The notes under the pieces were generated by a model. That model saw only the letters and a program-made list of their open reading frames with translations. It was not told where the DNA came from and ran no database searches. From Eledone cirrhosa (Eukaryota), in contig OZ024744.1 of NCBI GenBank assembly GCA_964016885.1, positions 128,650,001-128,714,000 of the forward strand: a stretch of DNA of 64,000 nt, read 5' to 3'. The number at the start of each line of letters is the position of its first letter. The stretch's first letter is position 1. The translations under genes were made by a program, and so were the position numbers. Below are positions 1-64,000 of the stretch, one piece after another.

Positions 1-3000
1 TTGGGGTTAAGTTAAGTTGGGGTTAAGGTAAGGTGGGGTTAAGTTAAGTTGGGGTTAAGTTAAGTTGGGGTTAAGTTAAGTTGGGGTTAAGTTAAGTTAG
101 GGTTAATTTCAGTTGGGGTTATGTTAAGTTGGGGTTAAGTTAAGTTGGGGTTAAGTTAAGTTGAGGTTAAGTTAAGTTGGAGTTAAGTTAAGTTGGGGTT
201 AAGCTAAGTTGGGGTTAAGTTAATTTGCGGTTAAGTTAGGTTGTGGGTTAAGTTAAGTTGGGGTTAAGTTAAGCTGGGGTTAAGTTAGGGTAAGTTAAGT
301 TGGGGTTAAGTTAAGTTGGGGTTAAGTTAGGTTGGGGTTAAGTTAAGTTGGGGTTAAGTTAAGTTGGGGTTGAGTTAAGTTGGGGTTGAGTTAAGTTGGG
401 GTTAAGTTAAGTTGGGGTTAAGTTAAGTTGGGGTTAAGTTAAGTTGGGGTTAAGTTAAGTTGGGGTTAAGTTAAGTTGGGGGCAAGTTAAGTTGGGGTTA
501 ATTTAAGTTGAGGTTAAGTTAAGTTGGTGTTAAGTTAAGTTGGGGCTAAGTTAAGTTGGGGCTGAGTTAAGTTGGGGCTGAGTTAAGTTGCAGTTAAGTT
601 AAGTTGGGGTTGAGTTAAGTTGCGGTTAAGTTAAGTTGGGGTTAAGTTAAGTTGGGGTTAAGTTAAGTTGGGGTTTATTTAAGTTGGGGTTCAGTTAATT
701 TGGGGTTAAGTTAAGTTTGGGTTAAGTTGGGGTTAAATTAAGTTGGGGTTAAATTAAGTTGGGGTTAAGCTAATTTGGGGTTAAGTTAAGTTGGGGTTAA
801 TTTAAGTTGGGGTTAAGTTAAGTTGCGGGTAATTTAAGTCGGGGTTAAGTTAAGTTGGGGTTAAGTTAAGTTGGGGTTAAGTTAAGGTGGGGTTTAGTTA
901 AGTTGGGGTTAAGTTAAGTTGGGGGTAAGTTAAGTTGGGGGTAAGTTAAGTTGGGGGTAAGTTAAGTTGGGGTTAAGTTAAGTCGGGGTTAAGTTAAGTT
1001 GGGGTTAAGTTAAGTTGGGGTTAATTTAAGTTGGGGTTAAGTTAAGTTGGGGGTAAGTTAAGTTGGGGGTAAGTTAAGTTAGGGTTAAGTTAAGTTGGGG
1101 TTGAGTTAAGTTGGGGTTAAGTTAAGTTGGGGTTATGTTAAGTTGGGGTTAAGTTAAGTTGGGGTTAAGTTAAGTTGGGGTTAAGTTAAGTTGCGGTTAA
1201 GTTAAGTTGGGGTTAAATTAAGTTGGGGTTAAGTTAAGTTGGGATTAAGTTAAGTTGGGGTTAAGTTAAGTTGGGGTTAAGTTAAGTTGGGGTTAAGTTA
1301 GATTGTTGTTAAGTTAAGTTGGGGTTAAGTTAAGTTGGGGTTAAGTTAAGTTGGGGTTAATTTAAGTTGGGGTTAAGTTATGTCGGGGTTAAGTTGAGTT
1401 GGGGTTAAGTTAAGTTGGGGTTAAGTTAAGTTGGGGTTAAGTTAAGTTGGGGTTAAGATAAGTTGGGGTTAAGTTAAGTTGGGGTTAAATTAAGTTCGGG
1501 TTAAGTTAATTTGGGGTTGACTTAAGTTGGGGTTAACTTAAGTTGGGATTAAGTTAAGTTGGGGTTAAGTTAAGTTGGGGTTAAATTAAGTTCGGGTTAA
1601 GTTAAGTTGGGGTTAAGTTAAGTTGGGGTTAAGTTAAGTTGGGGTTAAGTTAGGTTGGGGTTAAGTTAAGTTGGGGGTAAGTTAAGTTGGGGTTAAGTTA
1701 AGTTGGGGTTAAGTTAAGTTGGGGGTAAGTTAAGTTGGGGTTAAGCTAATTTGGGGTTAAGTTAAGTTGGGGTTAATTTAAGTTGGGGTTAAGTTAAGTT
1801 GCGGGTAATTTAAGTCGGGGTTAAGTTAAGTTGGGGTTAAGTTAAGTTGGGGTTAAGTTAAGGTGGGGTTTAGTTAAGTTGGGGTTAAGTTAAGTTGGGG
1901 GTAAGTTAAGTTGGGGGTAAGTTAAGTTGGGGGTAAGTTAAGTTGGGGTTAAGTTAAGTCGGGGTTAAGTTAAGTTGGGGTTAAGTTAAGTTGGGGTTAA
2001 TTTAAGTTGGGGTTAAGTTAAGTTGGGGGTAAGTTAAGTTGGGGGTAAGTTAAGTTAGGGTTAAGTTAAGTTGGGGTTGAGTTAAGTTGGGGTTAAGTTA
2101 AGTTGGGGTTATGTTAAGTTGGGGTTAAGTTAAGTTGGGGTTAAGTTAAGTTGGGGTTAAGTTAAGTTGCGGTTAAGTTAAGTTGGGGTTAAATTAAGTT
2201 GGGGTTAAGTTAAGTTGGGATTAAGTTAAGTTGGGGTTAAGTTAAGTTGGGGTTAAGTTAAGTTGGGGTTAAGTTAGATTGTTGTTAAGTTAAGTTGGGG
2301 TTAAGTTAAGTTGGGGTTAAGTTAAGTTGGGGTTAATTTAAGTTGGGGTTAAGTTATGTCGGGGTTAAGTTGAGTTGGGGTTAAGTTAAGTTGGGGTTAA
2401 GTTAAGTTGGGGTTAAGTTAAGTTGGGGTTAAGATAAGTTGGGGTTAAGTTAAGTTGGGGTTAAATTAAGTTCGGGTTAAGTTAATTTGGGGGTGACTTA
2501 AGTTGGGGTTAACTTAAGTTGGGATTAAGTTAAGTTGGGGTTAAGTTAAGTTGGGGTTAAATTAAGTTCGGGTTAAGTTAAGTTGGGGTTAAGTTAAGTT
2601 GGGGTTAAGTTAAGTTGGGGTTAAGTTAGGTTGGGGTTAAGTTAAGTTGGGGGTAAGTTAAGTTGGGGTTAAGTTAAGTTGGGGTTAAGTTAAGTTGGGG
2701 GTAAGTTAAGTTGGGGGTAAGTTAAGTTGGGGTTAATTTAAGTTGGGTCGAATTAAGTTGGTGTTAAGTTAAGTTGGGGTTAAGTTAAGTTGGGGTTAAG
2801 TTAAGTTGGGGTTAAGTTAAGATGGGGTTTAGTTAAGTTGGGGTTAAGTTATGTTGGGGTTACGTTAAGTTGGGGGTAAGTTAAGTTGGTGGTAAGTTAA
2901 GTTGGGGGTAAGTTAAGATGGGGTTAAATTAAGTTGGGGTTAAGTTAATTTGGGGTTGACTTAATTTGGGGTTGACTTAAGTTGGGGTTAACTTAAGTTG

Positions 3001-6000
3001 GGGTTAAGTTAAGATGGGGTTTAGTTAAGTTGGGGTTAAGTTAAGTTGGGGTTTAGTTAAGTTGGGGTTAAGTTAAGTTGGGGTTAAGTTAAGTTGGTGG
3101 TAAGTTAAGTTGGGGGTAAGTTAAGTTGGGGGTAAGTTAAGTTGGGGTTAATTTAAGTTGGGTCGAATTAAGTTGGTGTTAAGTTAAGTTGGGGTTAAGT
3201 TAAGTTGGGGTTAAGTTAAGTTGGGGTTAAGTTAAGTTGGGGGTAAGTTAAGTTGGGGTTAATTTAAGTTGGGTCGAATTAAGTTGGTGTTAAGTTAAGT
3301 TGGGGTTAAGTTAAGTTGGGGTTAAGTTAAGTTGGGGTTGAGTTAAGTCGGGGTTAAGTTAAGTTGGGGTTATGTTAAGTTGGGGTTAAGTTAAGTTGGG
3401 GTTAAGTTAAGTTGGGGTTCAATTAAGTTGCGGTTAATTTAAGTTGGGGTTAAGTTAAGTTGGGGTTAAGTTAAGTTGGGGTTAAGTTAAGTTGGGGTTA
3501 AATTAAGTTGGGGTTAAATTAAGTTGGGGTTAAGTTAAGTTGGGGTTATGTTAAGTTGGTGTTAAATTAAGTTGGGGTTAAGTTAAGTTGGGGTTAAGTT
3601 AAGTTGGGGTTAAGTTAGGTTGGTGTTAAGTTAAGTTGGGGGTAAGTTAAGTTGGGGGTAAGTTAAGTTGGTGTTAAGTTAAGTTGGGGTTAAGTTAAGT
3701 TGGGGTTAAGTTAAGTTGGGTTTAAGTTAAGTTGGGGCTAAGTTAAGTTAGGGCTAAGTTAAGTTGGGGTTAAGTAAAGTTAGGGCTAAGTTAAGTTGGG
3801 TTAAGTTAAGTTGGGGTTAATTTAACTTGGGGTTACATTAAGTTGAGGTTAAGTTAAGTTGGTGTTAAGTTAAGTTGGGGTTAATTTAAGTTGGGGTTAA
3901 TTAAGTTGGGGTTAATTTAAGTTGGGGTTAAGTTAAGTTGGGGTTAATTTCAGTTGGGGTTGAGTTAAGTTGGGGTTAAGTTTAGTTGGGGTTAATTTAA
4001 GTTGGGGTTGAGTTAAGTTGGGGTTAAGTTAAGTTGGGGTTAAGTTATGTTCGGGTTAAGTTAAGTTGCGGCTAAGTTAAGTTGGGTCTAAGTTAAGTTG
4101 GGGTTAAGTTAAGTTGGGGTTAAGTTAAGTGAGGGTTAATTTAAGTTGGGGTTATTTTAAGTTGGGGTTAAGTTAAGTTGGGGTTAAGTTAGGTTGGTGT
4201 TAAGTTAAGTTGGGGGTAAGTTAAGTTGGGGGTAAGTTAAGTTGGTGTTAAGTTAAGTTGGGTTTAAGTTAAGTTGGGGCTAAGTTAAGTTAGGGCTAAG
4301 TTAAGTTGGGGCTGAGTTAAGTTGGGGTTAAGTTAAGTTGGGGTTGAGTTAAGTTGGGGCTAAGTTAAGTTGGGGTTTAGTTAAGTTGGGGTTAAGTTAA
4401 GGTGGGGTTAAGTTAAGTTGGGGTCAACTAAAGTTGGGGTTAAGTTAAGTTGGGGTTAACTTAAGTTGGGGTTAAATTAAGTTGGGGTTAAGTTAAGTTG
4501 GGGTTAAGTTAAGTTGGGGTTAAGTTAAGTTGCGGGTAATTTAAGTTGGGGTTAAGTTAAGTTGGGGTTAAGTTAAGTTGGGGGTAAGTTAAGTTGGGGG
4601 TAAGTTAAGTTGGGGTTAAGTTAAGTTAGGGTTAAGTTAAGTTGGGGTTGAGTTAAGTTGGGGTTAAGTTAAGTTGGGGTTATGTTAAGTTGGGGTTAAG
4701 TTAAGTTGGGGTTAATTTAAGTTGGGGTTAAGTTAAGTTGCGGTTAAGTTAAGTTGGGGTTAAATTAAGTTGGGGTTAAGTTAAGTTGGGATTAAGTTAA
4801 GTTGGGGTTAAGTTAAGTTGGGGTTAAGTTAGATTGTTGTTAAGTTAAGTTGGGGTTAAGTTTAGTTGGGGTTAATTTAAGTTGGGGTTAATTTAAGTTG
4901 GGTCTAATTAAGTTGGGGTTAAGTTAAGTTGGGGTTAAGTTAAGTTGGGGTTAAGTTAAGTTGGGGTTAAGTTAAGTTGCGTTTACGTTAAGTTGGGGGT
5001 AAGTTAAGTTGGTGGTAAGTTAAGTTGGGGGTAAGTTAAGATGGGGTTAAGTTAAGTTGGGGTTAATTTAATTTGGGGTTAAGTTAAGTTAGGGTTAAGT
5101 TAAGTTGGGGTTGAGTTAAGTCGGGGTTCAGTTAAGTTGGGGTTATGTTAAGTTGGGGTTAAGTTAAGTTGGGGTTAAGTTAAGTTGGGGTTCAATTAAG
5201 TTGCGGGTAATTTAAGTTGGGGTTAAGTTAATTTGGGGGTACGTTAAGTTGGGGGTAAGTTAAGTTGGGGTTAAGTTAAGTTGGGGTTAAGTTAAGTCGT
5301 GGTTAATTTAAGTTGCGGTTAAGTTAAGTTGGGGTTAAGTTAAGTTGGGGTTAAGTTAAGTTGGGATTAAGTTAAGTTGGGGTTAAGTTAAGTTGGGGTT
5401 GAGTTAAGTTGGGGTTAAGTTAGATTATTGTTAATTTATTTTGGGGTTAAGTTAAGTTGGGGTTAAGTTAAGTTGGGGTTAATTTAAGTTGGGGTTAAGT
5501 TAAGTGGGGGTTAAGTTGAGTTGGGGTTAAGTTAAGTTGGGGTTAAGTTAAGTTGGGGTTAAGATAAGTTGGGGTTAAGTTAAGTTGGGGTTGAGTTAAG
5601 TTCGGGTTGAGTTAATTTGGGGTTAACTTAAGTTGGGGTTAACTTAAGTTGGGGTTAAGTTAAGTTGGGTTTATGTTAAGTTGGGGATAAGTTAAGTTGG
5701 GGTTAAGTTAAGTTGGGGTTCAATTAAGTTGCGGTTAATTTAAGTTGGGGTTAAGTTAAGTTGGGGTTAAGTTAAGTTGGGGTTAAGTTAAGTTGGGGTT
5801 AAATTAAGTTAGGGCTAAGTTAAGTTGAGGTTATGTTAAGTTGGTGTTAAGTTAAGTTGGGGTTAAGTTAAGTTGGGGTTTAAGTTAAGTTGGGGTTAAG
5901 TTAAGTTGGGGTTAAGTTAGGTTGGTGTTAAGTTAAGTTGGGGGTAAGTTAAGTTGGGGGTAAGTTAAGTTGGTGTTAAGTTAAGTTGGGGTTAAGTTAA

Positions 6001-6908
6001 GTTGGGGTTAATTTAAGTTGGGGTTAAGTTAAGTTGGGTTTAAGTTAAGTTGGGTCTAAGTTAAGTTGGGGTTAAGTTAAGTTGAGGTTAAGTTAAGTTG
6101 GGATTAAGTTAAGTTGGGGTCAAGTTAAGTTGGGGTTAAGTTAAGTTGGGGTTAAGTTAGGTTGGGGTCAAGTTATGTTGGGGGTAAGTTAAGTTGGGGG
6201 TAAGTTAAGTTGGGGGTAAGTTAAGTTGGGGGTGAGTTAAGTTGGTGGTAAGTTAAGTTGGGGGTAAGTTAAGATGGGGTTAAGTTAAGTTGGGGTTAAT
6301 TTAATTTGGGGTTAAGTTAAGTTAGGGTTAAGTTAAGTTGGGGTTGAGTTAAGTTGGGGTTAAGTTAAGTTGGGGTTATGTTAAGTTGGGGATAAGTTAA
6401 GTTGGGGTTAAGTTAAGTTGGGGTTCAATTAAGTTGCGGTTAATTTAAGTTGGGGTTAAGTTAAGTTCGGGTTAAGTTAAGTTGGGGTTAAGTTAAGTTG
6501 GGGTTAAATTAAGTTAGGGCTAAGTTAAGTTGAGGTTATGTTAAGTTGGTGTTAAGTTAAGTTGGGGTTAAGTTAAGTTGGGGTTAAGTTAAGTTGGGGT
6601 TAAGTTAAGTTGGGTTTAAGTTAAGTTGGGGCTAAGTTAAGTTGGGGCTAAGTTAAGTTGGGGTTAAGTTAAGTTGGAGTTAAGTTAAGTTGGGGTTAAG
6701 TTAGGTTGGTGTTAAGTTAAGTTGGGGGTAAGTTAAGTTGGGGGTAAGTTAAGTTGGTGTTAAGTTAAGTTGGGGTTAAGTTAAGTTGGGGCTAAGTTAA
6801 GTTGGGTTTAAGTTAAGTTGGGTCTAAGTTAAGTTGGGGTTAAGTTAAGTTGGGGTTAACTTAAGTTGGGGGTAAGTTAAGTTGGGTTTGAGTTAAGTTG
6901 GGGTTAAG
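1..6908 (+). repeat. 16-bp G-rich satellite array (TTGGGGTTAAGTTAAG)n, block 1, open at window start
   Basis: Continuous head-to-tail 16-mers with scattered substitutions (GGGGG, GGTG, GCGG, TTGAG, CTAAG) and rare 11/15-bp monomers; top strand nearly devoid of C. Confidence 0.99.
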
Positions 6909-7500
6909 TTAGGTTTTTCGAAAACCTTATATAATCATTTTTTTTTAGGTTTTTCGAAACACCTTATATAATCAATTTTTTTATGTTTTTCCAAAAACCT
7001 TATATAATCATTTTTTTTATACTTTTAGAAATATTTATATCTGATTTCAAATATTTATTTTTCTAGGTTTTTCGAAAACCTTATATAATCAATTTTTTTT
7101 AGGTTTTTCGAAAAATGTTATATAATCAATTTTTTTTAGGTTTTTCGAAAAACCTTATATAATCAATTTTTTTTTAGGTTTTTCGAAACACCTTATATAA
7201 TCAATTTTTTTTAGGTTTTTCGAAAAACCTTATATAATCAATTTTTTTTAGGTTTTTCGAAAAACCTTATATAATCAATTTTTTTAGGTTTTTCGTAAAA
7301 CCTTATATAATCAATTTTTTTAGGTTTTTCGAAAAACCTTATATAATCAATTTTTTTTAGGTTTTTCGAAATACCTTATATAATTAATTTTTTTTAGGTT
7401 TTTCGAAAAATCTTATATAATTAATTTATATCTGATTTCAAATATTGATTTTTTTAGGTTTTTCGAAAACCTTATATAATCAATTTTTTTTAGGTTTTTC
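6909..7500 (+). repeat. Left array of 36-38 bp minisatellite AGGTTTTTCGAAAAACCT-TATATAATCAA-T7-9
   Basis: Unit starts e.g. at 7213, 7250, 7286, 7322; interrupted twice by the TTTATATCTGATTTCAAATATT segment also found in the core units. Confidence 0.95.
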
Positions 7501-9420
7501 GAAAAAGAATGAATTCATATTCGAAATATATACTTCTGCATTAATCTTTTTACGTTTTTCTGATTTTTTGCATGTTTTGAAATTTAAAAAAAACGTAAAA
7601 AATTAATGCTTTTACAAATATTTTGAAATATTTACTTTCTGGTTTCAAATTTTGCAAATTAAATTTTTTTCTAAAAAAATCAGTTTTCGAAATCAGAAGT
7701 TAATATTTCGAAAAACGCAATTTAAAAAACTCATATTAATTTTTTTTCGAATGAAGTTTTTTTATGCTTTTAGAAATATTTATATCTGATTTAAAATATT
7801 GATTTTTTTAGGTTTACCTTATATAATCAAATTTTTTTAGGTTTTTCGAAATATCTTATATAATCAATTTTTTTTAGGTTTTTCGAAAAAGAATGAATTT
7901 GAGTTCATAGTCGAAATATATACTTCTGCATTAATCTTTGATTTTTTGCATGTTTTGAAATCTAAAAAAAACGTAAAAAATTAATGCTTTTACAAATATT
8001 TTGAAATATTTACTTTCTGGTTTCTAAGTTTGCAAATTAAATTTTTTTCGAAAAACCTAAAAAAATCAGTTTTTGAAATCAGAAGTTAATATTTCGAAAA
8101 ACGCAATTTGAAAAACTCATATTAATTTTTTTTCGAATGAAGTTTTTTATACTTTTAGAAATATTTATATCTGATTTCAAATATTGATTTTTTTAGGTTT
8201 TTCGAAAAAGAATGAATTTGAGTTCATAGTCGAAATATATATTTCTGCATTAATCTTTTTACGTTTTTCTGATTTTTTGCATGTTTTGAAATTTAAAAAA
8301 AACGTAAAAAAACAATATTTCGAAAAACGCAATTTGAAAAACTCATATTCATTTTTTTTCGAATGAATTCTTTCATACTTTTAGAAATATTTATATCTGA
8401 TTTTAAATATTGATTTTTTTAGGTTTACCTTATATAATCAAATGTTTTTAGGTTTTTCGAAAAAGAATGAATTTGAGTTCATAGTCGAAATATATACTTC
8501 TGCATTAATCTTTTTACGTTTTTCTGATTTTTTGCATGTTTTGAAATTTAAAAAAAAACGTAAAAAATTAATGCTTTTACAAATATTTTGAAATATTTAC
8601 TTTCTGGTTTCGAATTTTGCAAATTAAATTTTTTTCGAAAAAAACCTAAAAAAATCAGTTTTCGAAATCAGAAGTTAATATTTCGAAAAACGCAATTTGA
8701 AAAACTCATATTAATTTTTTTTCGAATGAAGTTTTTTTATGCTTTTAGAAATATTTATATCTGATTTCAAATATTGATTTTTTTAGGTTTTTCGAAAAAT
8801 CTTATATAATCAATTTTTTTTAGGTTTTTCGAAAAAGAATGAATTTGAGTTCATAGTCGAAATATATACTTCTGCATTAATCTTTGATTTTTTGCATGTT
8901 TTGAAATTTAAAAAAAACGTAAAAAATTAATATTTCGAAAAACGCAATTTGAAAAACTCATATTAATTTTTTTTCGAATGAATTCTTTTATACTTTTAGA
9001 AATATTTATATCTGATTTTAAATATTGATTTTTTTAGGTTTACCTTATATAATCAAATTTTTTTAGGTTGTTCGAAAAATCTTATATAATCAAATTTTTT
9101 TAGGTTTTTCGAAAAAGAATTTGAGTTCATAGTCGAAATATATACTTCTGCATTAATCTTTTTACGTTTTTCTGATTTTTTGCATGTTTTGAAATTTAAA
9201 AAAAACGTAAAAAATTAATGCTTTTACAAATATTTTGAAATATTTACTTTCTGGTTTCAAATTTTGTAAATTAAATTTTTTTCGAAAAACCTAAAAAAAT
9301 CAGTTTTCGAAATCAGAAGTTAATATTTCGAAAAACGCAATTTAAAAAACTCATATTAATTTTTTTTCGAATGAATTCTTTTAGAAATATTTATATCTGA
9401 TTTCAAATATTGATTTTTTT
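7501..9420 (+). repeat. Island 1 core: six tandem ~255-385 bp units (long, long, short, long, short, long)
   Basis: Marker GAAAAAGAAT at 7501, 7885, 8204, 8459, 8831, 9111; short units lack the ~100-bp GCTTTTACAAAT...CAGAAG segment. Confidence 0.92.
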
Positions 9421-9816
9421 AGGTTTACCTTATATAATCAAATTTTTTTAGGTTTTTCAAAAACCTTATATAATCAATTTTTTTTAGGTTTTTCGAAAAA
9501 CCTTACATAATCAATTTTTTTTAGGTTTTTTCGAAAAACCTTATATAATCAATTTTTTACGTTTTTAGAAAAACCTTATATAATCAATTTTTTTTATACT
9601 TTTAGAAATATTTATATCTTATTTCAAATATTGATTTTTTTTAGATTTTTCGAAATAACTTATATAATCAATTTTTCTAGGTGTTTCGAAAAACCTTATA
9701 TAATCAATTTTTTTTAGGTTTTTCGAAAGACCTTATATAATCAATTTTTTTTAGGTTTTTCGAAAAACCTTATATAATCAATTTTTTTAAGTTTTTCGAC
9801 AACCTTATATAATCAA
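9421..9816 (+). repeat. Right array of the ~37-bp palindromic minisatellite
   Basis: Same unit and orientation as the left array; ends CGACAACCTTATATAATCAA. Confidence 0.93.
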
Positions 9817-12800
9817 GTTGAGTTTAAGTTAAGTTGGGATTAAGTTAAGTTGGGGTTAAGTTAAGATGGGGTTAAGTTATGTTGAGGTTAAGTTAAGTTG
9901 GGGTTAAATTAAGTTGGGGTTAAGTTAAGTTGGGGTTAAGTTAAGTTGGGGTTAGGTTAAGTTGGGTTTAAGTTAAGTTGGGGATAAGTTAAGTTGGGGT
10001 TAAGTTAAGTTGGGTTTAAGTTAAGTTGGGGTTAAGTTAAGTTGGGGTTAAGTTAAGTTGGGGTTAAATTAAGTTGGGGTTAAGTTAAGTTGGGGTTGAG
10101 TGAAGTTGGGGTTAAGTTAAGTTGGGGTTAAATTAAATTGGGGTTAAGTTAAGTTGGGGTTGAGTGAAGTTGGGGTTAAGTTAAGTTGGGGTTAAATTAA
10201 GTTGGGGTTAAGTTTAGTTGGGGTTGAGTTAAGTTGGGGTTAATTTAAGTTGGGGCTAAGTTAATTTGTGGTTAAGTTAAGTTGGGGTTAAGTTAAGTTG
10301 GGGTTAAGTTAAGTTGGGGTTGAGTTAAGTTGGGGTTAAGTTAAGTTGGGTTTAAGTTAAGTTGGGGTTAAATTAAGTTGGGGTTAAATTAAGTTGGGGT
10401 TAAGTTAAGTTGGGGGTAAGTTAAGTTGGGGGCAAGTTAAGTTGGGGTTAAGTTAAGTTGGGGTTAAGTTAAGTTGGGGTTAATTTAAGTTGGGGTTATG
10501 TTAAGTCGGGGTTAAGTTAAGTTGGGGTTAAGTTAAGTTGGGGGTAAGTTACGTTAGGGCTAAGTTAAGTTGGGGTTAAGTTAAGTTGGTGTTAAGTTAA
10601 GTTGGGGGTAAGTTACGTTAGGGCTAAGTTACGTTGGGGTTAACTTAACCCCAACTTAACTTAACCCCAACTTAACTTAGACCCAACTTAACTGAGCCCC
10701 AACTTAACTTAACCCCAACGTAACTTAGCCCTAACGTAACTTACCCCCAACTTAACTTAACACCAACTTAACTTAACCCCAACTTAACTTACCCCCAACT
10801 TAACTTACCCCCAACTTAACTTACCCCCAACTTAACTTAACCCCAACTTAACTTAACTTAACCCCAACTTAAGTTAAGTTTGGGTTAAGGTTGGGGTTAA
10901 ATTAAGTTGGGGTTAAGTTAAGTTGGGGTTAAGTTAAGTTGGGGTTAAGTTAAGTTGGGGGTAAGTTAAGTTGGGGTTAAGTTAAGTTCGGGTTAAGTTA
11001 AGTTGGTGTTAAGTTAAGTTGGGGCTGAGTTAAGTTGGGGCTAAGTTAAGTTGGGTCTAAGTTAAGTAGGGGTTAAGTTAAGTTGGGGTTAAGTTAAGTT
11101 GGTTTTAAATTAAGTTGGGGTTAAATTAAGTTGGTGTTAAGTTAAGTTGGGGTTAAGTTAAGTTGGGGTTAATTAAATTGGGGTTAAGTTAAGTTGGGGT
11201 TAAGTTAATTGGGGTTAAATTAAGTTAGGGTTGAGTTAAGTTGGGGTTAAGTTAAGTTGGGGTTATATTAAGTTGGGGTTAAGTTAAGTTGGGGTTAAGT
11301 AAAGTTGGGGTTCAGTTAAGTTGGGGTTAAGTTAAGTTAGGCTTAACTTAAGTTGGGGTTAAGTTAAGTTGGGGGTGAGTTAAGTTGGGGGTAAGTTAAG
11401 TTGGGGTTAAGTTAAGTTGGGGTTAAGTTGGGGTTAAGTTAATTTAGGGTTAAGTTAAGTTGGGGTTGAGTTAAGTTGGGGTTAAGTTAAGTGGTGGTTA
11501 TGTTAAGTTGGGGTTAAGTTAAGTTGGGGTTAATTTAAATTGGGGTTAATTTAACTTTGTGGTTAAGTTAATTTGGGGTTAATTTAAGTTGGGGTTAAGT
11601 TAAGTTGGGGTTAATTTAATTTGTGGTTAAGTTAAGTTGGGGTTAAGTTAAGTTGGCGTTGAGTTAAGCTGGGGTTAAGTTAAGTTGGGGTTAAAATAAG
11701 TTGGGGTTAATTTAAGTTGGGGCTGAGTTAAGTTGGGGTTAAGTTGGGGTTGAGTTAAGTTGGGGTTAAGTTAAGTTGGGATTAAGTTAAGTTGGGGTTA
11801 AGTTAAGTTCGGGTTGAGTTAAGTTGGGGTTAAATTAAGTTGGGGTTAATTTAAGTTGGGGTTAAGTTAAGTTGGGGTTAAGATAAGTTGGGGTTAAGTT
11901 AAGTTGGGGTTAAGTTAAGTTGGGGTTGAGTTAATTTGGGGTTAAGTTAAGTTGGGGTTAACTTAAGTTGGGGTTAAGTTAAGTTGGGGTTAAGTTAAGT
12001 TGGGGGTAAGTTAAGTTGGGGGCAAGTTGAGTTGGGGTTAAGTTAAGTTGGGGTTAAGTTAAGGTGGGGGTAAGTTAAGTTGGGGGTAAGTTAAGTTGGG
12101 GTTAAGTTAAGTTGGGGTTAAGTTAAGTTGGGTTTGAGTTAAGTTGGGGCTAAGTTAAGTTGGGGCTAAGTTAAGTTGGGGCTAAGTTAAGTTGGGGCTG
12201 AGTTAAGTTGGGGTTAAGTTAAGTTGGGGTTGAGTTAAGTTGGGGTTAACTTAAGTTGGGGTTAAGTTGGGGTTAAGTTAAGTTGGGGTTAAGTTAAGTT
12301 GGGGGTTAGTTAAGTTGGGGGCAAGTTAAGTTGGGGTTAATTTAAGTTGGGGTTAAGTTAAGTTGGGGTTATGTTAAGTTGGGGTTAAGTTAAGTTGGGG
12401 TTAAGTTAAGTTGGGGGTAAGTTATGTTGGGGTTAAGTTAAGTTGGGGGTAAGTTAAGTTGAGGGTAAGTTAAGTTGGGGTTAAGTTACGTTGGGGTTAA
12501 ATTAAGTTGGGGTAAGTTAAGCCGGGGGTAAGTTAAGTTGGGGTTAAGTTAAGTTGGGGTTAAATTAAGTTGAGGTTAAGTTAAGTTGGGGTTAAATTAA
12601 GTTGGGGGTAAGATAAGTTGGGGCTAAGTTAAGTTGGGGCTAAGTCAAGTTGGGGTTAAGTCAAGTTGAGGTTAACTTAAGTTGGGGTTAAGTTAAGTTG
12701 GGGTTAAGTTAAGTTGGGGTTAAGGTAAGTTGGGGTTATGTTAAGTTGGGGCTAAGTTAAGTTGGGGCTAAGTTGGGGCTAAGTTAAGTTGGGGCTGAGT

Positions 12801-54000: not shown

Positions 54001-57000
54001 AGTTAAGTTGGGGTTAAGTTAAGTCGGGGTTAAGTTAAGTTGGGGTTAAGTTAAGTTGGGGTTAATTTAAGTTGGGGTTAAGTTAAGTTGGGGGTAAGTT
54101 AAGTTGGGGGTAAGTTAAGTTAGGGTTAAGTTAAGTTGGGGTTGAGTTAAGTTGGGGTTAAGTTAAGTTGGGGTTATGTTAAGTTGGGGTTAAGTTAAGT
54201 TGGGGTTAAGTTAAGTTGGGGTTAAGTTAAGTTGCGGTTAAGTTAAGTTGGGGTTAAATTAAGTTGGGGTTAAGTTAAGTTGGGATTAAGTTAAGTTGGG
54301 GTTAAGTTAAGTTGGGGTTAAGTTAAGTTGGGGTTAAGTTAGATTGTTGTTAAGTTAAGTTGGGGTTAAGTTAAGTTGGGGTTAAGTTAAGTTGGGGTTA
54401 ATTTAAGTTGGGGTTAAGTTATGTCGGGGTTAAGTTGAGTTGGGGTTAAGTTAAGTTGGGGTTAAGTTAAGTTGGGGTTAAGTTAAGTTGGGGTTAAGAT
54501 AAGTTGGGGTTAAGTTAAGTTGGGGTTAAATTAAGTTCGGGTTAAGTTAATTTGGGGTTGACTTAAGTTGGGGTTAACTTAAGTTGGGATTAAGTTAAGT
54601 TGGGGTTAAGTTAAGTTGGGGTTAAATTAAGTTCGGGTTAAGTTAAGTTGGGGTTAAGTTAAGTTGGGGTTAAGTTAAGTTGGGGTTAAGTTAGGTTGGG
54701 GTTAAGTTAAGTTGGGGGTAAGTTAAGTTGGGGTTAAGTTAAGTTGGGGTTAAGTTAAGTTGGGGGTAAGTTAAGTTGGGGGTAAGTTAAGTTGGGGTTA
54801 ATTTAAGTTGGGTCGAATTAAGTTGGTGTTAAGTTAAGTTGGGGTTAAGTTAAGTTGGGGTTAAGTTAAGTTGGGGTTAAGTTAAGATGGGGTTTAGTTA
54901 AGTTGGGGTTAAGTTAAGTTGGGGTTACGTTAAGTTGGGGGTAAGTTAAGTTGGTGGTAAGTTAAGTTGGGGGTAAGTTAAGATGGGGTTAAATTAAGTT
55001 GGGGTTAAGTTAATTTGGGGTTGACTTAATTTGGGGTTGACTTAAGTTGGGGTTAACTTAAGTTGGGGTTAAGTTAAGTTGGGGTTAAGTTAAGTTGGTG
55101 GTAAGTTAAGTTGGGGGTAAGTTAAGTTGGGGGTAAGTTAAGTTGGGGTTAATTTAAGTTGGGTCGAATTAAGTTGGTGTTAAGTTAAGTTGGGGTTAAG
55201 TTAAGTTGGGGTTAAGTTAAGTTGGGGTTAAGTTAAGTTGGGGGTAAGTTAAGTTGGGGGTAAGTTAAGTTGGGGTTAATTTAAGTTGGGTCGAATTAAG
55301 TTGGTGTTAAGTTAAGTTGGGGTTAAGTTAAGTTGGGGTTAAGTTAAGTTGGGGTTGAGTTAAGTCGGGGTTAAGTTAAGTTGGGGTTATGTTAAGTTGG
55401 GGTTAAGTTAAGTTGGGGTTAAGTTAAGTTGGGGTTCAATTAAGTTGCGGTTAATTTAAGTTGGGGTTAAGTTAAGTTGGGGTTAAGTTAAGTTGGGGTT
55501 AAGTTAAGTTGGGGTTAAATTAAGTTGGGGTTAAATTAAGTTGGGGTTAAGTTAAGTTGGGGTTATGTTAAGTTGGTGTTAAGTTAAGTTGGGGTTAAGT
55601 TAAGTTGGGGTTAAGTTAAGTTGGGGTTAAGTTAGGTTGGTGTTAAGTTAAGTTGGGGGTAAGTTAAGTTGGGGGTAAGTTAAGTTGGTGTTAAGTTAAG
55701 TTGGGGTTAAGTTAAGTTGGGGTTAAGTTAAGTTGGGTTTAAGTTAAGTTGGGGCTAAGTTAAGTTAGGGCTAAGTTAAGTTGGGGTTAAGTAAAGTTAG
55801 GGCTAAGTTAAGTTGGGTTAAGTTAAGTTGGGGTTAATTTAACTTGGGGTTACATTAAGTTGAGGTTAAGTTAAGTTGGTGTTAAGTTAAGTTGGGGTTA
55901 ATTTAAGTTGGGGTTAATTAAGTTGGGGTTAATTTAAGTTGGGGTTAAGTTAAGTTGGGGTTAATTTCAGTTGGGGTTGAGTTAAGTTGGGGTTAAGTTT
56001 AGTTGGGGTTAATTTAAGTTGGGGTTGAGTTAAGTTGGGGTTAAGTTAAGTTGGGGTTAAGTTATGTTCGGGTTAAGTTAAGTTGGTGTTAAGTTAAGTT
56101 AGGGTTAAGTTAAGTTGCGGCTAAGTTAAGTTGGGGTTAAGTTAAGTTGGGGTTAAGTTAAGTGAGGGTTAATTTAAGTTGGGGTTATTTTAAGTTGGGG
56201 TTAAGTTAAGTTGGGGTTAAGTTAGGTTGGTGTTAAGTTAAGTTGGGGGTAAGTTAAGTTGGGGGTAAGTTAAGTTGGTGTTAAGTTAAGTTGGGTTTAA
56301 GTTAAGTTGGGGCTAAGTTAAGTTAGGGCTAAGTTAAGTTGGGGCTGAGTTAAGTTGGGGTTAAGTTAAGTTGGGGTTGAGTTAAGTTGGGGCTAAGTTA
56401 AGTTGGGGTTTAGTTAAGTTGGGGTTAAGTTAAGGTGGGGTTAAGTTAAGTTGGGGTCAACTAAAGTTGGGGTTAAGTTAAGTTGGGGTTAACTTAAGTT
56501 GGGGTTAAATTAAGTTGGGGTTAAGTTAAGTTGGGGTTAAGTTAAGTTGGGGTTAAGTTAAGTTGCGGGTAATTTAAGTTGGGGTTAAGTTAAGTTGGGG
56601 TTAAGTTAAGTTGGGGGTAAGTTAAGTTGGGGGTAAGTTAAGTTGGGGTTAAGTTAAGTTAGGGTTAAGTTAAGTTGGGGTTGAGTTAAGTTGGGGTTAA
56701 GTTAAGTTGGGGTTATGTTAAGTTGGGGTTTAGTTAAGTTGGGGTTAATTTAAGTTGGGGTTAAGTTAAGTTGCGGTTAAGTTAAGTTGGGGTTAAATTA
56801 AGTTGGGGTTAAGTTAAGTTGGGATTAAGTTAAGTTGGGGTTAAGTTAAGTTGGGGTTAAGTTAGATTGTTGTTAAGTTAAGTTGGGGTTAAGTTAAGTT
56901 GGGGTTAATTTAAGTTGGGGTTAATTTAAGTTGGGTCTAATTAAGTTGGGGTTAAGTTAAGTTGGGGTTAAGTTAAGTTGGGGTTAAGTTAAGTTGGGGT

Positions 57001-60000
57001 TAAGTTAAGTTGCGTTTACGTTAAGTTGGGGGTAAGTTAAGTTGGTGGTAAGTTAAGTTGGGGGTAAGTTAAGATGGGGTTAAGTTAAGTTGGGGTTAAT
57101 TTAATTTGGGGTTAAGTTAAGTTAGGGTTAAGTTAAGTTGGGGTTGAGTTAAGTCGGGGTTCAGTTAAGTTGGGGTTATGTTAAGTTGGGGTTAAGTTAA
57201 GTTGGGGTTAAGTTAAGTTGGGGTTCAATTAAGTTGCGGGTAATTTAAGTTGGGGTTAAGTTAAGTTGGGGGTACGTTAAGTTGGGGTTAAGTTAAGTTG
57301 GGGTTAAGTTAAGTCGGGGTTAATTTAAGTTGCGGTTAAGTTAAGTTGGGGTTAAGTTAAGTTGGGGTTAAGTTAAGTTGGGATTAAGTTAAGTTGGGGT
57401 TAAGTTAAGTTGGGGTTGAGTTAAGTTGGGGTTAAGTTAGATTATTGTTAATTTATTTTGGGGTTAAGTTAAGTTGGGGTTAAGTTAAGTTGGGGTTAAT
57501 TTAAGTTGGGGTTAAGTTAAGTGGGGGTTAAGTTGAGTTGGGGTTAAGTTAAGTTGGGGTTAAGTTAAGTTGGGGTTAAGATAAGTTGGGGTTAAGTTAA
57601 GTTGGGGTTGAGTTAAGTTCGGGTTGAGTTAATTTGGGGTTAACTTAAGTTGGGGTTAACTTAAGTTGGGGTTAAGTTAAGTTGGGTTTATGTTAAGTTG
57701 GGGATAAGTTAAGTTGGGGTTAAGTTAAGTTGGGGTTCAATTAAGTTGCGGTTAATTTAAGTTGGAGTTAAGTTAAGTTGGGGTTAAGTTAAGTTGGGGT
57801 TAAGTTAAGTTGGGGTTAAATTAAGTTAGGGCTAAGTTAAGTTGAGGTTATGTTAAGTTGGTGTTAAGTTAAGTTGGGGTTAAGTTAAGTTGGGGTTTAA
57901 GTTAAGTTGGGGTTAAGTTAAGTTGGGGTTAAGTTAGGTTGGTGTTAAGTTAAGTTGGGGGTAAGTTAAGTTGGGGGTAAGTTAAGTTGGTGTTAAGTTA
58001 AGTTGGGGTTAAGTTAAGTTGGGGTTAATTTAAGTTGGGGTTAAGTTAAGTTGGGTTTAAGTTAAGTTGGGTCTAAGTTAAGTTGGGGTTAAGTTAAGTT
58101 GAGGTTAAGTTAAGTTGGGATTCAGTTAAGTTGGGGTTAAGTTAAGTTGGGGTTAAGTTAAGTTGGGGTTAAGTTAGGTTGGGGTCAAGTTATGTTGGGG
58201 GTAAGTTAAGTTGGGGGTAAGTTAAGTTGGGGTTAATTTAAGTTGGGTCGAATTAAGTTGGTGTTAAGTTAAGTTGGGGTTAAGTTAAGTTGGGGTTAAG
58301 TTAAGTTGGGGTTAAGTTAAGTTGGGGGTAAGTTAAGTTGGGGGTAAGTTAAGTTGGGGTTAATTTAAGTTGGGTCGAATTAAGTTGGTGTTAAGTTAAG
58401 TTGGGGTTAAGTTAAGTTGGGGTTAAGTTAAGTTGGGGTTGAGTTAAGTCGGGGTTAAGTTAAGTTGGGGTTATGTTAAGTTGGGGTTAAGTTAAGTTGG
58501 GGTTAAGTTAAGTTGGGGTTCAATTAAGTTGCGGTTAATTTAAGTTGGGGTTAAGTTAAGTTGGGGTTAAGTTAAGTTGGGGTTAAGTTAAGTTGGGGTT
58601 AAATTAAGTTGGGGTTAAATTAAGTTGGGGTTAAGTTAAGTTGGGGTTATGTTAAGTTGGTGTTAAGTTAAGTTGGGGTTAAGTTAAGTTGGGGTTAAGT
58701 TAAGTTGGGGTTAAGTTAGGTTGGTGTTAAGTTAAGTTGGGGGTAAGTTAAGTTGGGGGTAAGTTAAGTTGGTGTTAAGTTAAGTTGGGGTTAAGTTAAG
58801 TTGGGGTTAAGTTAAGTTGGGTTTAAGTTAAGTTGGGGCTAAGTTAAGTTAGGGCTAAGTTAAGTTGGGGTTAAGTAAAGTTAGGGCTAAGTTAAGTTGG
58901 GTTAAGTTAAGTTGGGGTTAATTTAACTTGGAGTTACATTAAGTTGAGGTTAAGTTAAGTTGGTGTTAAGTTAAGTTGGGGTTAATTTAAGTTGGGGTTA
59001 ATTAAGTTGGGGTTAATTTAAGTTGGGGTTAAGTTAAGTTGGGGTTAATTTCAGTTGGGGTTGAGTTAAGTTGGGGTTAAGTTTAGTTGGGGTTAATTTA
59101 AGTTGGGGTTGAGTTAAGTTGGGGTTAAGTTAAGTTGGGGTTAAGTTATGTTCGGGTTAAGTTAAGTTGGTGTTAAGTTAAGTTAGGGTTAAGTTAAGTT
59201 GCGGCTAAGTTAAGTTGGGTCTAAGTTAAGTTGGGGTTAAGTTAAGTTGGGGTTAAGTTAAGTGAGGGTTAATTTAAGTTGGGGTTATTTTAAGTTGGGG
59301 TTAAGTTAAGTTGGGGTTAAGTTAGGTTGGTGTTAAGTTAAGTTGGGGGTAAGTTAAGTTGGGGGTAAGTTAAGTTGGTGTTAAGTTAAGTTGGGTTTAA
59401 GTTAAGTTGGGGCTAAGTTAAGTTAGGGCTAAGTTAAGTTGGGGCTGAGTTAAGTTGGGGTTAAGTTAAGTTGGGGTTGAGTTAAGTTGGGGCTAAGTTA
59501 AGTTGGGGTTTAGTTAAGTTGGGGTTAAGTTAAGGTGGGGTTAAGTTAAGTTGGGGTCAACTAAAGTTGGGGTTAAGTTAAGTTGGGGTTAACTTAAGTT
59601 GGGGTTAAATTAAGTTGGGGTTAAGTTAAGTTGGGGTTAAGTTAAGTTGGGGTTAAGTTAAGTTGCGGGTAATTTAAGTTGGGGTTAAGTTAAGTTGGGG
59701 TTAAGTTAAGTTGGGGGTAAGTTAAGTTGGGGGTAAGTTAAGTTGGGGTTAAGTTAAGTTAGGGTTAAGTTAAGTTGGGGTTGAGTTAAGTTGGGGTTAA
59801 GTTAAGTTGGGGTTATGTTAAGTTGGGGTTAAGTTAAGTTGGGGTTAATTTAAGTTGGGGTTAAGTTAAGTTGCGGTTAAGTTAAGTTGGGGTTAAATTA
59901 AGTTGGGGTTAAGTTAAGTTGGGATTAAGTTAAGTTGGGGTTAAGTTAAGTTGGGGTTAAGTTAGATTGTTGTTAAGTTAAGTTGGGGTTAAGTTAAGTT

Positions 60001-61641
60001 GGGGTTAATTTAAGTTGGGGTTAATTTAAGTTGGGTCTAATTAAGTTGGGGTTAAGTTAAGTTGGGGTTAAGTTACGTTGGGGTTAAGTTAAGTTGCGTT
60101 TACGTTAAGTTGGGGGTAAGTTAAGTTGGTGGTAAGTTAAGTTGGGGGTAAGTTAAGATGGGGTTAAGTTAAGTTGGGGTTAATTTAATTTGGGGTTAAG
60201 TTAAGTTAGGGTTAAGTTAAGTTGGGGTTGAGTTAAGTCGGGGTTCAGTTAAGTTGGGGTTATGTTAAGTTGGGGTTAAGTTAAGTTGGGGTTAAGTTAA
60301 GTTGGGGTTCAATTAAGTTGCGGGTAATTTAAGTTGGGGTTAAGTTAAGTTGGGGGTACGTTAAGTTGGGGGTAAGTTAAGTTGGGGTTAAGTTAAGTTG
60401 GGGTTAAGTTAAGTCGGGGTTAATTTAAGTTGCGGTTAAGTTAAGTTGGGGTTAAGTTAAGTTGGGGTTAAGTTAAGTTGGGATTAAGTTAAGTTGGGGT
60501 TAAGTTAAGTTGGGGTTGAGTTAAGTTGGGGTTAAGTTAGATTATTGTTAATTTATTTTGGGGTTAAGTTAAGTTGGGGTTAAGTTAAGTTGGGGTTAAT
60601 TTAAGTTGGGGTTAAGTTAAGTGGGGGTTAAGTTGAGTTGGGGTTAAGTTAAGTTGGGGTTAAGTTAAGTTGGGGTTAAGATAAGTTGGGGTTAAGTTAA
60701 GTTGGGGTTGAGTTAAGTTCGGGTTGAGTTAATTTGGGGTTAACTTAAGTTGGGGTTAACTTAAGTTGGGGTTAAGTTAAGTTGGGTTTATGTTAAGTTG
60801 GGGATAAGTTAAGTTGGGGTTAAGTTAAGTTGGGGTTCAATTAAGTTGCGGTTAATTTAAGTTGGGGTTAAGTTAAGTTGGGGTTAAGTTAAGTTGGGGT
60901 TAAGTTAAGTTGGGGTTAAATTAAGTAAGGGCTAAGTTAAGTTGAGGTTATGTTAAGTTGGTGTTAAGTTAAGTTGGGGTTAAGTTAAGTTGTGGTTAAG
61001 TTAAGTTGGGGTTTAAGTTAAGTTGGGGTTAAGTTAAGTTGGGGTTAATTTAATTTGGGGTTAAGTTAAGTTAGGGTTAAGTTAAGTTGGGGTTGAGTTA
61101 AGTTGGGGTTAAGTTAAGTTGGGGTTATGTTAAGTTGGGGATAAGTTAAGTTGGGGTTAAGTTAAGTTGGGGTTCAATTAAGTTGCGGTTAATTTAAGTT
61201 GGGGTTAAGTTAAGTTCGGGTTAAGTTAAGTTGGGGTTAAGTTAAGTTGGGGTTAAATTAAGTTAGGGCTAAGTTAAGTTGAGGTTATGTTAAGTTGGTG
61301 TTAAGTTAAGTTGGGGTTAAGTTAAGTTGGGGTTAAGTTAAGTTGGGGTTAAGTTAAGTTGGGTTTAAGTTAAGTTGGGGCTAAGTTAAGTTGGGGTTAA
61401 GTTAAGTTGGGGTTAAGTTAAGTTGGGGTTAAGTTAGGTTGGTGTTAAGTTAAGTTGGGGGTAAGTTAAGTTGGGGGTAAGTTAAGTTGGTGTTAAGTTA
61501 AGTTGGGGTTAAGTTAAGTTGGGGCTAAGTTAAGTTGGGTTTAAGTTAAGTTGGGTCTAAGTTAAGTTGGGGTTAAGTTAAGTTGGGGTTAACTTAAGTT
61601 GGGGGTAAGTTAAGTTGGGTTTGAGTTAAGTTGGGGTTAAG
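48039..61641 (+). repeat. 16-bp satellite array, block 4 (contains inversion 48718-48945)
   Basis: Same consensus; from 53042 onward it reproduces the variant order seen from position 1. Confidence 0.99.
48718..48945 (-). repeat. Inverted satellite block 3, 228 bp
   Basis: Same breakpoints as the other two blocks, one CTTAA pentamer shorter near the right end. Confidence 0.97.
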
Positions 61642-64000
61642 TTAGGTTTTTCGAAAACCTTATATAATCATTTTTTTTTAGGTTTTTCGAAACACCTTAT
61701 ATAATCAATTTTTTTATGTTTTTCGAAAAACCTTATATAATCATTTTTTTTATACTTTTAGAAATATTTATATCTGATTTCAAATATTTATTTTTCTAGG
61801 TTTTTCGAAAACCTTATATAATCAATTTTTTTTAGGTTTTTCGAAAAATGTTATATAATCAATTTTTTTTAGGTTTTTCGAAAAACCTTATATAATCAAT
61901 TTTTTTTTAGGTTTTTCGAAACACCTTATATAATCAATTTTTTTTAGGTTTTTCGAAAAACCTTATATAATCAATTTTTTTTAGGTTTTTCGAAAAACCT
62001 TATATAATCAATTTTTTTAGGTTTTTCGTAAAACCTTATATAATCAATTTTTTTAGGTTTTTCGAAAAACCTTATATAATCAATTTTTTTTAGGTTTTTC
62101 GAAATACCTTATATAATTAATTTTTTTTAGGTTTTTCGAAAAATCTTATATAATTAATTTATATCTGATTTCAAATATTGATTTTTTTAGGTTTTTCGAA
62201 AACCTTATATAATCAATTTTTTTTAGGTTTTTCGAAAAAGAATGAATTCATATTCGAAATATATACTTCTGCATTAATCTTTTTTGCATGTTTTGAAATT
62301 TAAAAAAAACGTAAAAAATTAATGCTTTTACAAATATTTTGAAATATTTACTTTCTGGTTTCAAATTTTGCAAATTAAATTTTTTTCTAAAAAAATCAGT
62401 TTTCGAAATCAGAAGTTAATATTTCGAAAAACGCAATTTAAAAAACTCATATTAATTTTTTTTCGAATGAAGTTTTTTTATGCTTTTAGAAATATTTATA
62501 TCTGATTTAAAATATTGATTTTTTTAGGTTTACCTTATATAATCAAACAAATTTTTTTAGGTTTTTCGAAATATCTTATATAATCAATTTTTTTTAGGTT
62601 TTTCGAAAAAGAATGAATTTGAGTTCATAGTCGAAATATATACTTCTGCATTAATCTTTGATTTTTTGCATGTTTTGAAATCTAAAAAAAACGTAAAAAA
62701 TTAATGCTTTTACAAATATTTTGAAATATTTACTTTCTGGTTTCTAAGTTTGCAAATTAAATTTTTTTCGAAAAACCTAAAAAAAATCAGTTTTTGAAAT
62801 CAGAAGTTAATATTTCGAAAAACGCAATTTGAAAAACTCATATTAATTTTTTTTCGAATGAAGTTTTTTATACTTTTAGAAATATTTATATCTGATTTCA
62901 AATATTGATTTTTTTAGGTTTTTCGAAAAAGAATGAATTTGAGTTCATAGTCGAAATATATATTTCTGCATTAATCTTTTTACGTTTTTCTGATTTTTTG
63001 CATGTTTTGAAATTTAAAAAAAACGTAAAAAATCAATATTTCGAAAAACGCAATTTGAAAAACTCATATTCATTTTTTTTCGAATGAATTCTTTCATACT
63101 TTTAGAAATATTTATATCTGATTTTAAATATTGATTTTTTTAGGTTTACCTTATATAATCAAATTTTTTTAGGTTTTTCGAAAAAGAATGAATTTGAGTT
63201 CATAGTCGAAATATATACTTCTGCATTAATCTTTTTACGTTTTTCTGATTTTTTGCATGTTTTGAAATTTAAAAAAAAACGTAAAAAATTAATGGTTTTA
63301 CAAATATTTTGAAATATTTACTTTCTGGTTTCGAATTTTGCAAATTAAATTTTTTTCGAAAAAAACCTAAAAAAATCAGTTTTCGAAATCAGAAGTTAAT
63401 ATTTCGAAAAACGCAATTTGAAAAACTCATATTAATTTTTTTTCGAATGAAGTTTTTTTATGCTTTTAGAAATATTTATATCTGATTTCCAATATTGATT
63501 TTTTTTAGGTTTTTCGAAAAAGAATGAATTTGAGTTCATAGTCGAAATATATATTTCTGCATTGATCTTTGATTTTTTGCATGTTTTGAAATTTAAAAAA
63601 AAAGTAAAAAATTAATGATTTTACAAATATTTTGAAATATTTACTTTCTGGTTTCAAAGTTTGCAAATTAAATTTTTTTCGAAAAACCTAAAAAAAATCA
63701 GTTTTCGAAATCAGAAGTTAATATTTCGAAAAACGCAATTTAAAAAACTCATATTAATTTTTTTTCGAATGAATTCTTTTAGAAATATTTATATCTGATT
63801 TCAAATATTGATTTTTTTAGGTTTACCTTATATAATCAATTTTTTTTAGGTTTTTCAAAAACCTTATATAATCAATTTTTTTTAGGTTTTTCGAAAAACC
63901 TTACATAATCAATTTTTTTTAGGTTTTTTCGAAAAACCTTATATAATCAATTTTTTACGTTTTTAGAAAAACCTTATATAATCAATTTTTTTTATACTTT
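61642..64000. repeat. AT-rich composite repeat island 4 (five core units; truncated by window end)
   Basis: Same left junction; core markers near 62234, 62605, 62925, 63180, 63516; right 37-bp array starts at 63819. Confidence 0.96.

Follow-up and report, generated by a model that had tools for sequence, protein, structure and literature searches.

We analysed a 64,000-nt stretch of the Eledone cirrhosa genome (C28:128,650,001-128,714,000, without an N gap; hereafter the window), in which a G-rich satellite alternates with AT-rich islands and short inversions. The G-rich satellite has a 16-bp unit, makes up 85% of the window and has a GC content of 37-40% with a GC skew of about +0.9. The remaining 15% consists of four AT-rich blocks (the islands, 19% GC), and three short segments of satellite lie on the opposite strand. 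Tandem Repeats Finder (TRF) recovered periods of 16 bp, 37 bp and 260-370 bp. The window belongs to the main 16-mer array of C28, which extends from 126,967,457 to about 135,347,800 (8.38 Mb) and is built throughout of monomers that are 5-6% off the consensus; beyond it come about 24 kb of a 32-bp relative. A small outlier site of 16-mer and island DNA is located at C28:124.63 Mb.

In window positions, the 16-bp satellite (TTGGGG TTAAG TTAAG; TRF) occupies 1..6908 on the plus strand, as do all following features except the inversions. Island 1 (6909..9816) is 2,908 bp of AT-rich satellite with 37-bp runs at each end and six core units of about 320-390 bp between them. A satellite spacer (9817..10639) separates it from inversion 1 (10640..10872, minus strand), about 233 bp of strand-reversed 16-mer whose reverse complement exactly matches the 83 bp of flank ending at its left breakpoint, making it a fold-back. 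The satellite that follows (10873..29052) contains internal duplications of 1-4 kb blocks with identities of 99.6-100%. Island 2 (29053..31349; 2,297 bp) is island 1 minus one 615-bp deletion, at 99.8% identity; its spacer (31350..31996) is 176 bp shorter than that of island 1 and leads to inversion 2 (31997..32229, minus strand), with the same breakpoints as inversion 1, and then to more satellite (32230..45741). Island 3 (45742..48038; 2,297 bp) is 99.9% identical to island 2 and is followed by its spacer (48039..48717), by inversion 3 (48718..48945, minus strand), which shares these breakpoints and has one 5-bp subunit less, and by satellite (48946..61641). Island 4 (61642..64000) has a total length of 2,537 bp and runs 178 bp past the window end.

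These island starts and ends, with a single left and a single right junction, and the inversions located 824, 648 and 680 bp past the ends of islands 1-3, agree with a preliminary description of the window. Its statement that each complete island is followed by the same inversion holds for islands 1-3 but not for island 4, where the 6.8 kb downstream contain no such inversion. Likewise, the nested hierarchy that it proposed is real for the 16-bp, 37-bp and 260-370-bp periods, but the level of about 54 kb is not a period: in the window's self-comparison the diagonals at 53-55 kb are patchy, and the longest colinear repeat is a two-unit block of about 39 kb. Aside from whole-subunit deletions, the window islands are 99.4-99.9% alike, and their satellite flanks have been copied together with them at 99.5-100% identity over 0.5-2.6 kb. 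The spacer after island 1 shows 0-3 differences in 829 bp when compared to those after six other islands, while the spacers of the remaining islands diverge from 10-440 bp onwards. A coding or structured-RNA role of the region was rejected; no open reading frame of at least 50 codons from ATG occurs in the window, and Rfam gave no match in window positions 6500-11500 or in 15 flanking loci. A reading as a G-quadruplex array was set aside too, as the G4Hunter-type score is borderline (mean 1.06, with 39% of scored windows at 1.2 or more, compared to 1.5 for TTAGGG).

We compared 22 further stretches of C28:128.56-129.60 Mb, in which islands were picked by their right junction. The 37 island starts listed in this interval come from 40 scored candidates out of 557, and some long gaps may therefore hide islands. 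Their spacings range from 6 to 251 kb with a median of 14.7 kb, and 11 of the 36 fall between 15.5 and 22.5 kb, so that the described repetition every 16-22 kb does not extend to the cluster. The right junction is common to all 27 sampled islands, as selected, while the left flank is of the standard type in 21, of a second type in four and of other types in two. Island lengths vary from 0.7 to 3.4 kb over the 27 copies (1.2-3.4 kb without one fold-back remnant). Among 26 islands (one was left out for too little downstream sequence), the inversion lies at most 1.5 kb downstream in 12 cases and 2.5-6.7 kb downstream in three, and is absent in 11, including window island 4; at two loci it is doubled. 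The likeness of island ends drops with distance (Spearman -0.55, from noisy alignments). Sampling the rest of the array at even spacing with 20 stretches of 10 kb, we found neither part in nine, inversions alone in eight and both in three; the islands of these three, at 132.1-132.6 Mb, belong to an older lineage whose right junction differs. Duplications of blocks at 99% identity or more were found in island-free stretches too. Consequently, the data do not support the three-part unit as the structural element that had been suggested: its parts separate right outside the window, and the unit spans about 1 Mb of the 8.4-Mb array.

The positions of rearrangements bear on whether the unit is conserved. 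Between window units, 34 of 36 large breakpoints lie in the satellite, which represents 87% of the compared length (binomial p = 0.13; the pairs are not independent). The satellite's breakpoint excess matches its length share, and therefore the bias of length variation towards the satellite needs no selection. The earlier idea that the module is retained while variation falls mostly in the satellite is thus not borne out, as the islands themselves vary over 0.7-3.4 kb and the satellite's share of breakpoints is predicted by its length. Breakpoints would occur mostly in the 16-mer because it constitutes 85% of the DNA, and for that reason islands and inversions would be kept, trimmed, doubled or lost by chance. 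The common right junction and near-identity of the islands are what one insertion and one fold-back event that were subsequently copied would produce. We consider it probable that one AT-satellite patch and one fold-back, each likely made once, were passively copied by tandem block duplication within the 16-mer array, and that the three-part unit as such has no role.

A three-step process could produce this arrangement. The first step would be an ectopic recombination or a template switch between neighbouring arrays that belong to a heterochromatin repeat library common to C2, C3, C18, C25 and C28; it would place a 2-3 kb piece of AT satellite in the 16-mer array, leaving a joint with 2-3 shared bases and without terminal repeats. 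About 0.8 kb downstream, a replication template switch at a TTAA-centred palindrome would then copy the flank back on itself. Finally, unequal exchange or break-induced replication would duplicate blocks of 6-40 kb over about 1 Mb.

Several measurements weigh against passive copying of two single events. The fold-back arm length (79-83 bp) is reached by 10 of 193 random satellite pairs at a threshold of 78. Breakpoints are somewhat rarer in islands than expected, at 2 of 36 compared to 13% (p = 0.13). The pairing of a G-rich, telomere-like satellite with this AT satellite recurs on C2, C25 and C28 with the G-rich and T-rich strands mostly aligned (they are opposite at C18:12.85 Mb). Not only C28 but also C25 and the unplaced contig C916 acquired an alternation of the two, in units of 13-21 kb. 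Such recurrent pairing may reflect shared ancestry, or it could reflect constraint, and, from the sequence, a function of the islands is conceivable.

The fold-backs have features of their own. The 40 bp before the inversion breakpoint are present only at inversions across all loci compared, and on both strands in 12 of 13 sources. Inversions start at short self-complementary words, and those without an island mostly begin at GGGGTTAACCCC. Template switches produce short inversions (PMC5453318), and the four-point model described there resembles our case in combining a short inversion, a reverse copy of the flank and breakpoints at short palindromes, with the difference that the event here was later amplified together with the array. 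The inversions thus fit short-range template switching, a mechanism that we infer from their form, and the array's own palindromic words would seed such inversions repeatedly. A separate 2.6-kb palindrome (99.3%) is located at C28:128,584,600-128,587,200, with its centre in an island's 37-bp run.

The island is a second, independent satellite family and not retroelement DNA. Its 37-bp, 44-bp and 260-370-bp units occur as pure arrays, tens of kilobases long, at C25:19.86-19.93 Mb and further on, on C916, and at C18:12.85-13.0 Mb and further on; its core units are 89-95% alike from site to site. C916 and C25 show the reverse arrangement, with 6-7 kb blocks of the 32-bp G-rich relative of the 16-mer occurring every 13-21 kb within the AT satellite. 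C916 resembles an unplaced piece or haplotype of the C25:19.86-19.93 Mb locus; past the end of its AT satellite (8500-10000 of the stretch examined) lie broken reverse-transcriptase/endonuclease remains, putatively Penelope-like. The island has no coding frame, and its longest stop-free stretch is 68 aa. The palindrome richness noted earlier is real, but it is confined to the 37-bp subunit rather than spread over the whole island. In island 1, perfect inverted repeats account for 10% of the sequence, compared to 3.7% in 15 dinucleotide shuffles (maximum 5.8%); the 37-bp subunit, with 23 copies in the window, contains a perfect 18-bp palindrome, and a 37-bp run folds strongly (z = -8.2) while a core-unit stretch does not (z = +0.2).

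Alternatively, repeated insertion of a non-autonomous transposon (of foldback, miniature inverted-repeat transposable element or Helitron type) could have brought the islands into the satellite. The occurrence of similar DNA on several chromosomes and the island's internal tandem repeats and palindromes are compatible with this, as foldback elements have internal tandem repeats and palindromes. However, every island copy has the same flanks, which indicates one event and not many insertions; both island ends fall inside direct-orientation 37-bp units that share 2-3 bases with the 16-mer at the junctions; and elsewhere the family is a long tandem array. As neither terminal inverted repeats at the island ends nor independent insertions with distinct flanks were found, we rejected membership in the foldback and miniature inverted-repeat classes, and we regard a transposon origin as very improbable. 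An origin from a ribosomal DNA (rDNA) spacer was also rejected. The rDNA units on C4, C12 and C25 contain neither 16-mer nor island repeat, with only a 50-bp match at 84% outside the GC-rich unit. The idea had been prompted by tandem repeats of rDNA pieces at C28:124.8-126.0 Mb, where a 172-bp unit matches the region before 18S, a 317-bp unit consists of 18S/28S fragments and the copies are 98-99% alike.

The preliminary description had proposed that the array might be a telomerase-independent chromosome end, of the kind known from Chironomus, where satellites of about 350 bp replace telomerase repeats (PMC9498494). The array has the strong G-strand bias and the telomere-like words that such an end would suggest. 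Moreover, C28 as assembled ends in other repeats, without TTAGGG, although both ends are probably incomplete. However, C7, C9 and C10 (three of 11 chromosome starts examined) begin with (CCCTAA)n that is 95-99% pure, and TTAGGG is the telomere motif reported for an octopus (PMC13218726); the existence of such canonical ends refutes a telomerase-free end array. The array is also interior, as it stops 1.13 Mb short of the C28 end (136.5 Mb) with other repeats and single-copy-like DNA between, and at least 0.4 Mb of it (C28:132.8-133.2 Mb, adjoining the older island cluster) is reversed. Other arrays are interstitial on C2, C3 and C18. We therefore find this reading scarcely credible.

The distribution of these repeats over the other chromosomes provides a view of their relationships, here and below among the matches listed. 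A perfect 91-bp 16-mer run occurs on C3, C18 (4.80 and 9.9-10.5 Mb) and C28 only, over C1-C28, and the 32 perfect runs of 123 bp are limited to C28. A third family with 196-bp and 520-bp units, rich in fold-backs, is found on C2, C18 and C28. At C18:4.80 Mb and C28:126.967 Mb the same array edge lies within a C2H2 zinc-finger remnant, and 1.9 kb of flank is 97.4% identical; this common edge and flank are direct evidence of exchange between chromosomes. Degenerate TTAGGG arrays of more than 200 kb, with a common 7-bp variant, are located near the midpoints of C1 (217.85-218.1 Mb, 49.2%) and C3 (184.55-184.77 Mb, 48.7%), where they are likely fusion scars or centromeres. On C3 this array abruptly abuts a 0.6-Mb 16-mer array on the opposite strand, with TTGGGG frequent in part and TTAAGTTAAG absent. 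At the midpoint of C2 (209.17-209.88 Mb, 50.3%), a diverged AT satellite adjoins 0.68 Mb of a 520-bp unit that holds about 16 copies of the 16-mer, followed in a row by the 196-bp family, an AT patch, a 32-mer and a 20-bp satellite.

We considered whether an acrocentric C28 could have the core of its functional centromere in the island cluster, with AT-rich hairpin islands recruiting CENP-A and selection keeping the periodic unit. The multi-megabase homogeneous array lies near one end of C28, the youngest-looking duplications (99% or more) lie in the island cluster, the 37-bp runs fold strongly, related repeats sit at 49-50% of C1, C2 and C3, and molluscs including an octopus have CENP-A (PMC12210499). 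However, an exact 22-mer of the AT satellite, present on C2 and C18 and also on C25 and C28, is missing from 16 of the 18 chromosomes C1-C18 (C1 and C3-C17; diverged variants could escape), and the 16-mer array of C3 has no island word. In addition, C28 has three island sites (124.6, 128.6-129.6 and 132.1-132.6 Mb), the families extend over 4.8-13 Mb on C18, the module is unstable, and the duplications at 99% or more are not limited to the islands' surroundings. We judge a centromere core in the island cluster to be unlikely.

The whole array is a separate case. A pan-centromeric family was rejected, as the 16-mer, the AT satellite and the 196/520-bp family are, among the matches listed, all on the same few chromosomes. 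Two observations speak against a universal centromere role: these words are lacking on most chromosomes, and each of C18 and C28 has several sites. A single main array on each of most chromosomes, as a centromeric satellite would generally form, was not found among the matches listed, and C2 carries the 16-mer inside its 520-bp unit; chromosome-specific centromeric satellites are nevertheless conceivable. Because the three largest chromosomes carry related repeats at their midpoints, the entire C28 array is a centromere candidate. Judged by its sequence, it may be structural heterochromatin of centromeric or pericentromeric kind, and the chances that it contains or flanks the C28 centromere are about even. 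A broader proposal holds that telomere-like G-rich satellites (degenerate TTAGGG, the 16-mer and its 32-bp relative) together with the AT satellite mark centromeres, that the C1-C3 midpoints are centric-fusion relics of telocentric ancestors and that the young island-inversion cluster of an acrocentric C28 is the CENP-A core. This proposal is possible though rather doubtful; if true, it would provide sequence-level centromere candidates for cephalopods.

The arrangement was further compared to independent sequencing runs. Both satellites are present in X1 contigs and in raw reads of other samples, and they are therefore not inventions of the assembly. The right junction is bridged by no contig or read in X1, X5, X6 and X8, and its diagnostic base was unseen; the restriction-site-associated DNA runs have little power, and holes prove nothing. 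Window-type island-core alleles reach 0-1% of X1 depth at two sites, a measurement whose weight is limited by filters. The unbridged junction and the low allele depth fit either a recent, individual-specific expansion or an assembly over-expansion. Copy number and order could accordingly be partly an artefact of an over-expanded repeat or of chimeric fold-back reads. However, the copies fall into lineages defined by the nested deletions and substitutions that they share, the inversions recur with fixed breakpoints, the window has no gap, and both satellites are present in independent runs. The same data are explained by a recent expansion in one individual. We consider an artefact of this kind quite improbable. 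Run X4 (organism B, share 0.12) contains island-core pieces at low depth, which is too little to date the family, and no RNA run holding the sequence was listed.

Passive copying of an AT-satellite patch and a fold-back has counterparts in known systems. One of the closest is human Yq12 (DYZ1/HSat3 with the AT-rich DYZ2/HSat1B; 10.1101/2022.12.01.518658), where a multi-megabase, subterminal short-unit satellite (38% GC) alternates with an AT-rich satellite (24% GC in Yq12, 19% here) and where block sizes vary, inversions occur and homogenisation is local. C28 would resemble it further if, as its place among the contigs hints, it is a sex chromosome. In E. cirrhosa, simple and AT-rich satellite blocks alternate over about 1 Mb at 128.56-129.60 Mb, again at 132.1-132.6 Mb, and reciprocally on C25 and C916. 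The two differ in that the ratio in Yq12 is 1:1, whereas islands make up 15% of the window and are missing from 17 of the 20 other stretches. Moreover, the AT-rich blocks of Yq12 measure 11 kb-2 Mb, while those described here measure 1-3 kb; the Alu-like part of Yq12 is missing here, and the sequences are unrelated.

In Arabidopsis, tandem block duplication has carried one insertion into 10 copies within telomere-like arrays (10.64898/2026.05.10.723265). These interstitial telomeric repeat domains, with their tandem TE-HOR block duplications, share with our locus a megabase-scale telomere-like satellite and a single insertion multiplied by block duplication, but the passenger there is a transposon, whereas here it is a satellite patch with an inversion, and the 16-mer consensus has no canonical TTAGGG. 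By analogy with Arabidopsis, abrupt differences in array size between individuals are plausible.

The island centromeres of Drosophila melanogaster (PMC6516634), invoked by the preliminary description, also place complex DNA blocks within simple satellite. Their islands, however, are retroelement-rich and bear CENP-A, with G2/Jockey-3 at all centromeres, while the islands of E. cirrhosa are non-coding satellite in dozens of tandem copies that are missing from most chromosomes. The analogy fails here, as the islands consist of 37-bp and 260-370-bp tandem units and the exact 22-mer of their family is absent from most of C1-C18. Cichlid 'centroids' (PMC13652916) are similar in that elements unlike satellites, together with orientation switches, organise a satellite array; they form one inverted pair of about 15 kb on most chromosomes, in contrast to the patches described here, which are 1-3 kb long, all point the same way and number dozens at a single locus.

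Literature searches found no published work on these repeats and no described cephalopod centromere sequences, and four motifs of the satellites had no occurrence in full-text literature, as represented by main texts (supplements, repeat databases and subscription journals may hold them). The satellites appear new and their architecture of a known kind. With one inter-array exchange and one template-switch inversion as markers, block duplication can be followed over about 1 Mb, which makes the locus a clean natural record of satellite evolution. The more useful result is that the telomere-like arrays at the C1-C3 midpoints and the 8.4-Mb C28 array are concrete targets for locating cephalopod centromeres and fusion sites.

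The assembly comprises 2,996 Mb in 1,796 contigs. Four chromosomes (C1, 442.9 Mb; C2, 416.3 Mb; C3, 378.9 Mb; C4, 378.8 Mb) measure 379-443 Mb, compared to 22-135 Mb for others, which range from C5 (134.7 Mb) to C27 (22.4 Mb). In the contig order C28 (136.5 Mb) stands between the smallest of these and C29 (49 kb), a place that sex chromosomes often take; by this position it may be one. The genome encodes long C2H2 zinc-finger arrays and at least five molluscan haemocyanin gene copies (C1:173.7-173.9 Mb, C26:21.9-22.0 Mb and C27:0.06 Mb). Such arrays, like haemocyanins of seven units, are octopod traits. Three of these are on C1 with seven units each, and one unit per C1 copy has an in-frame TAG within the match, which may be an intron.

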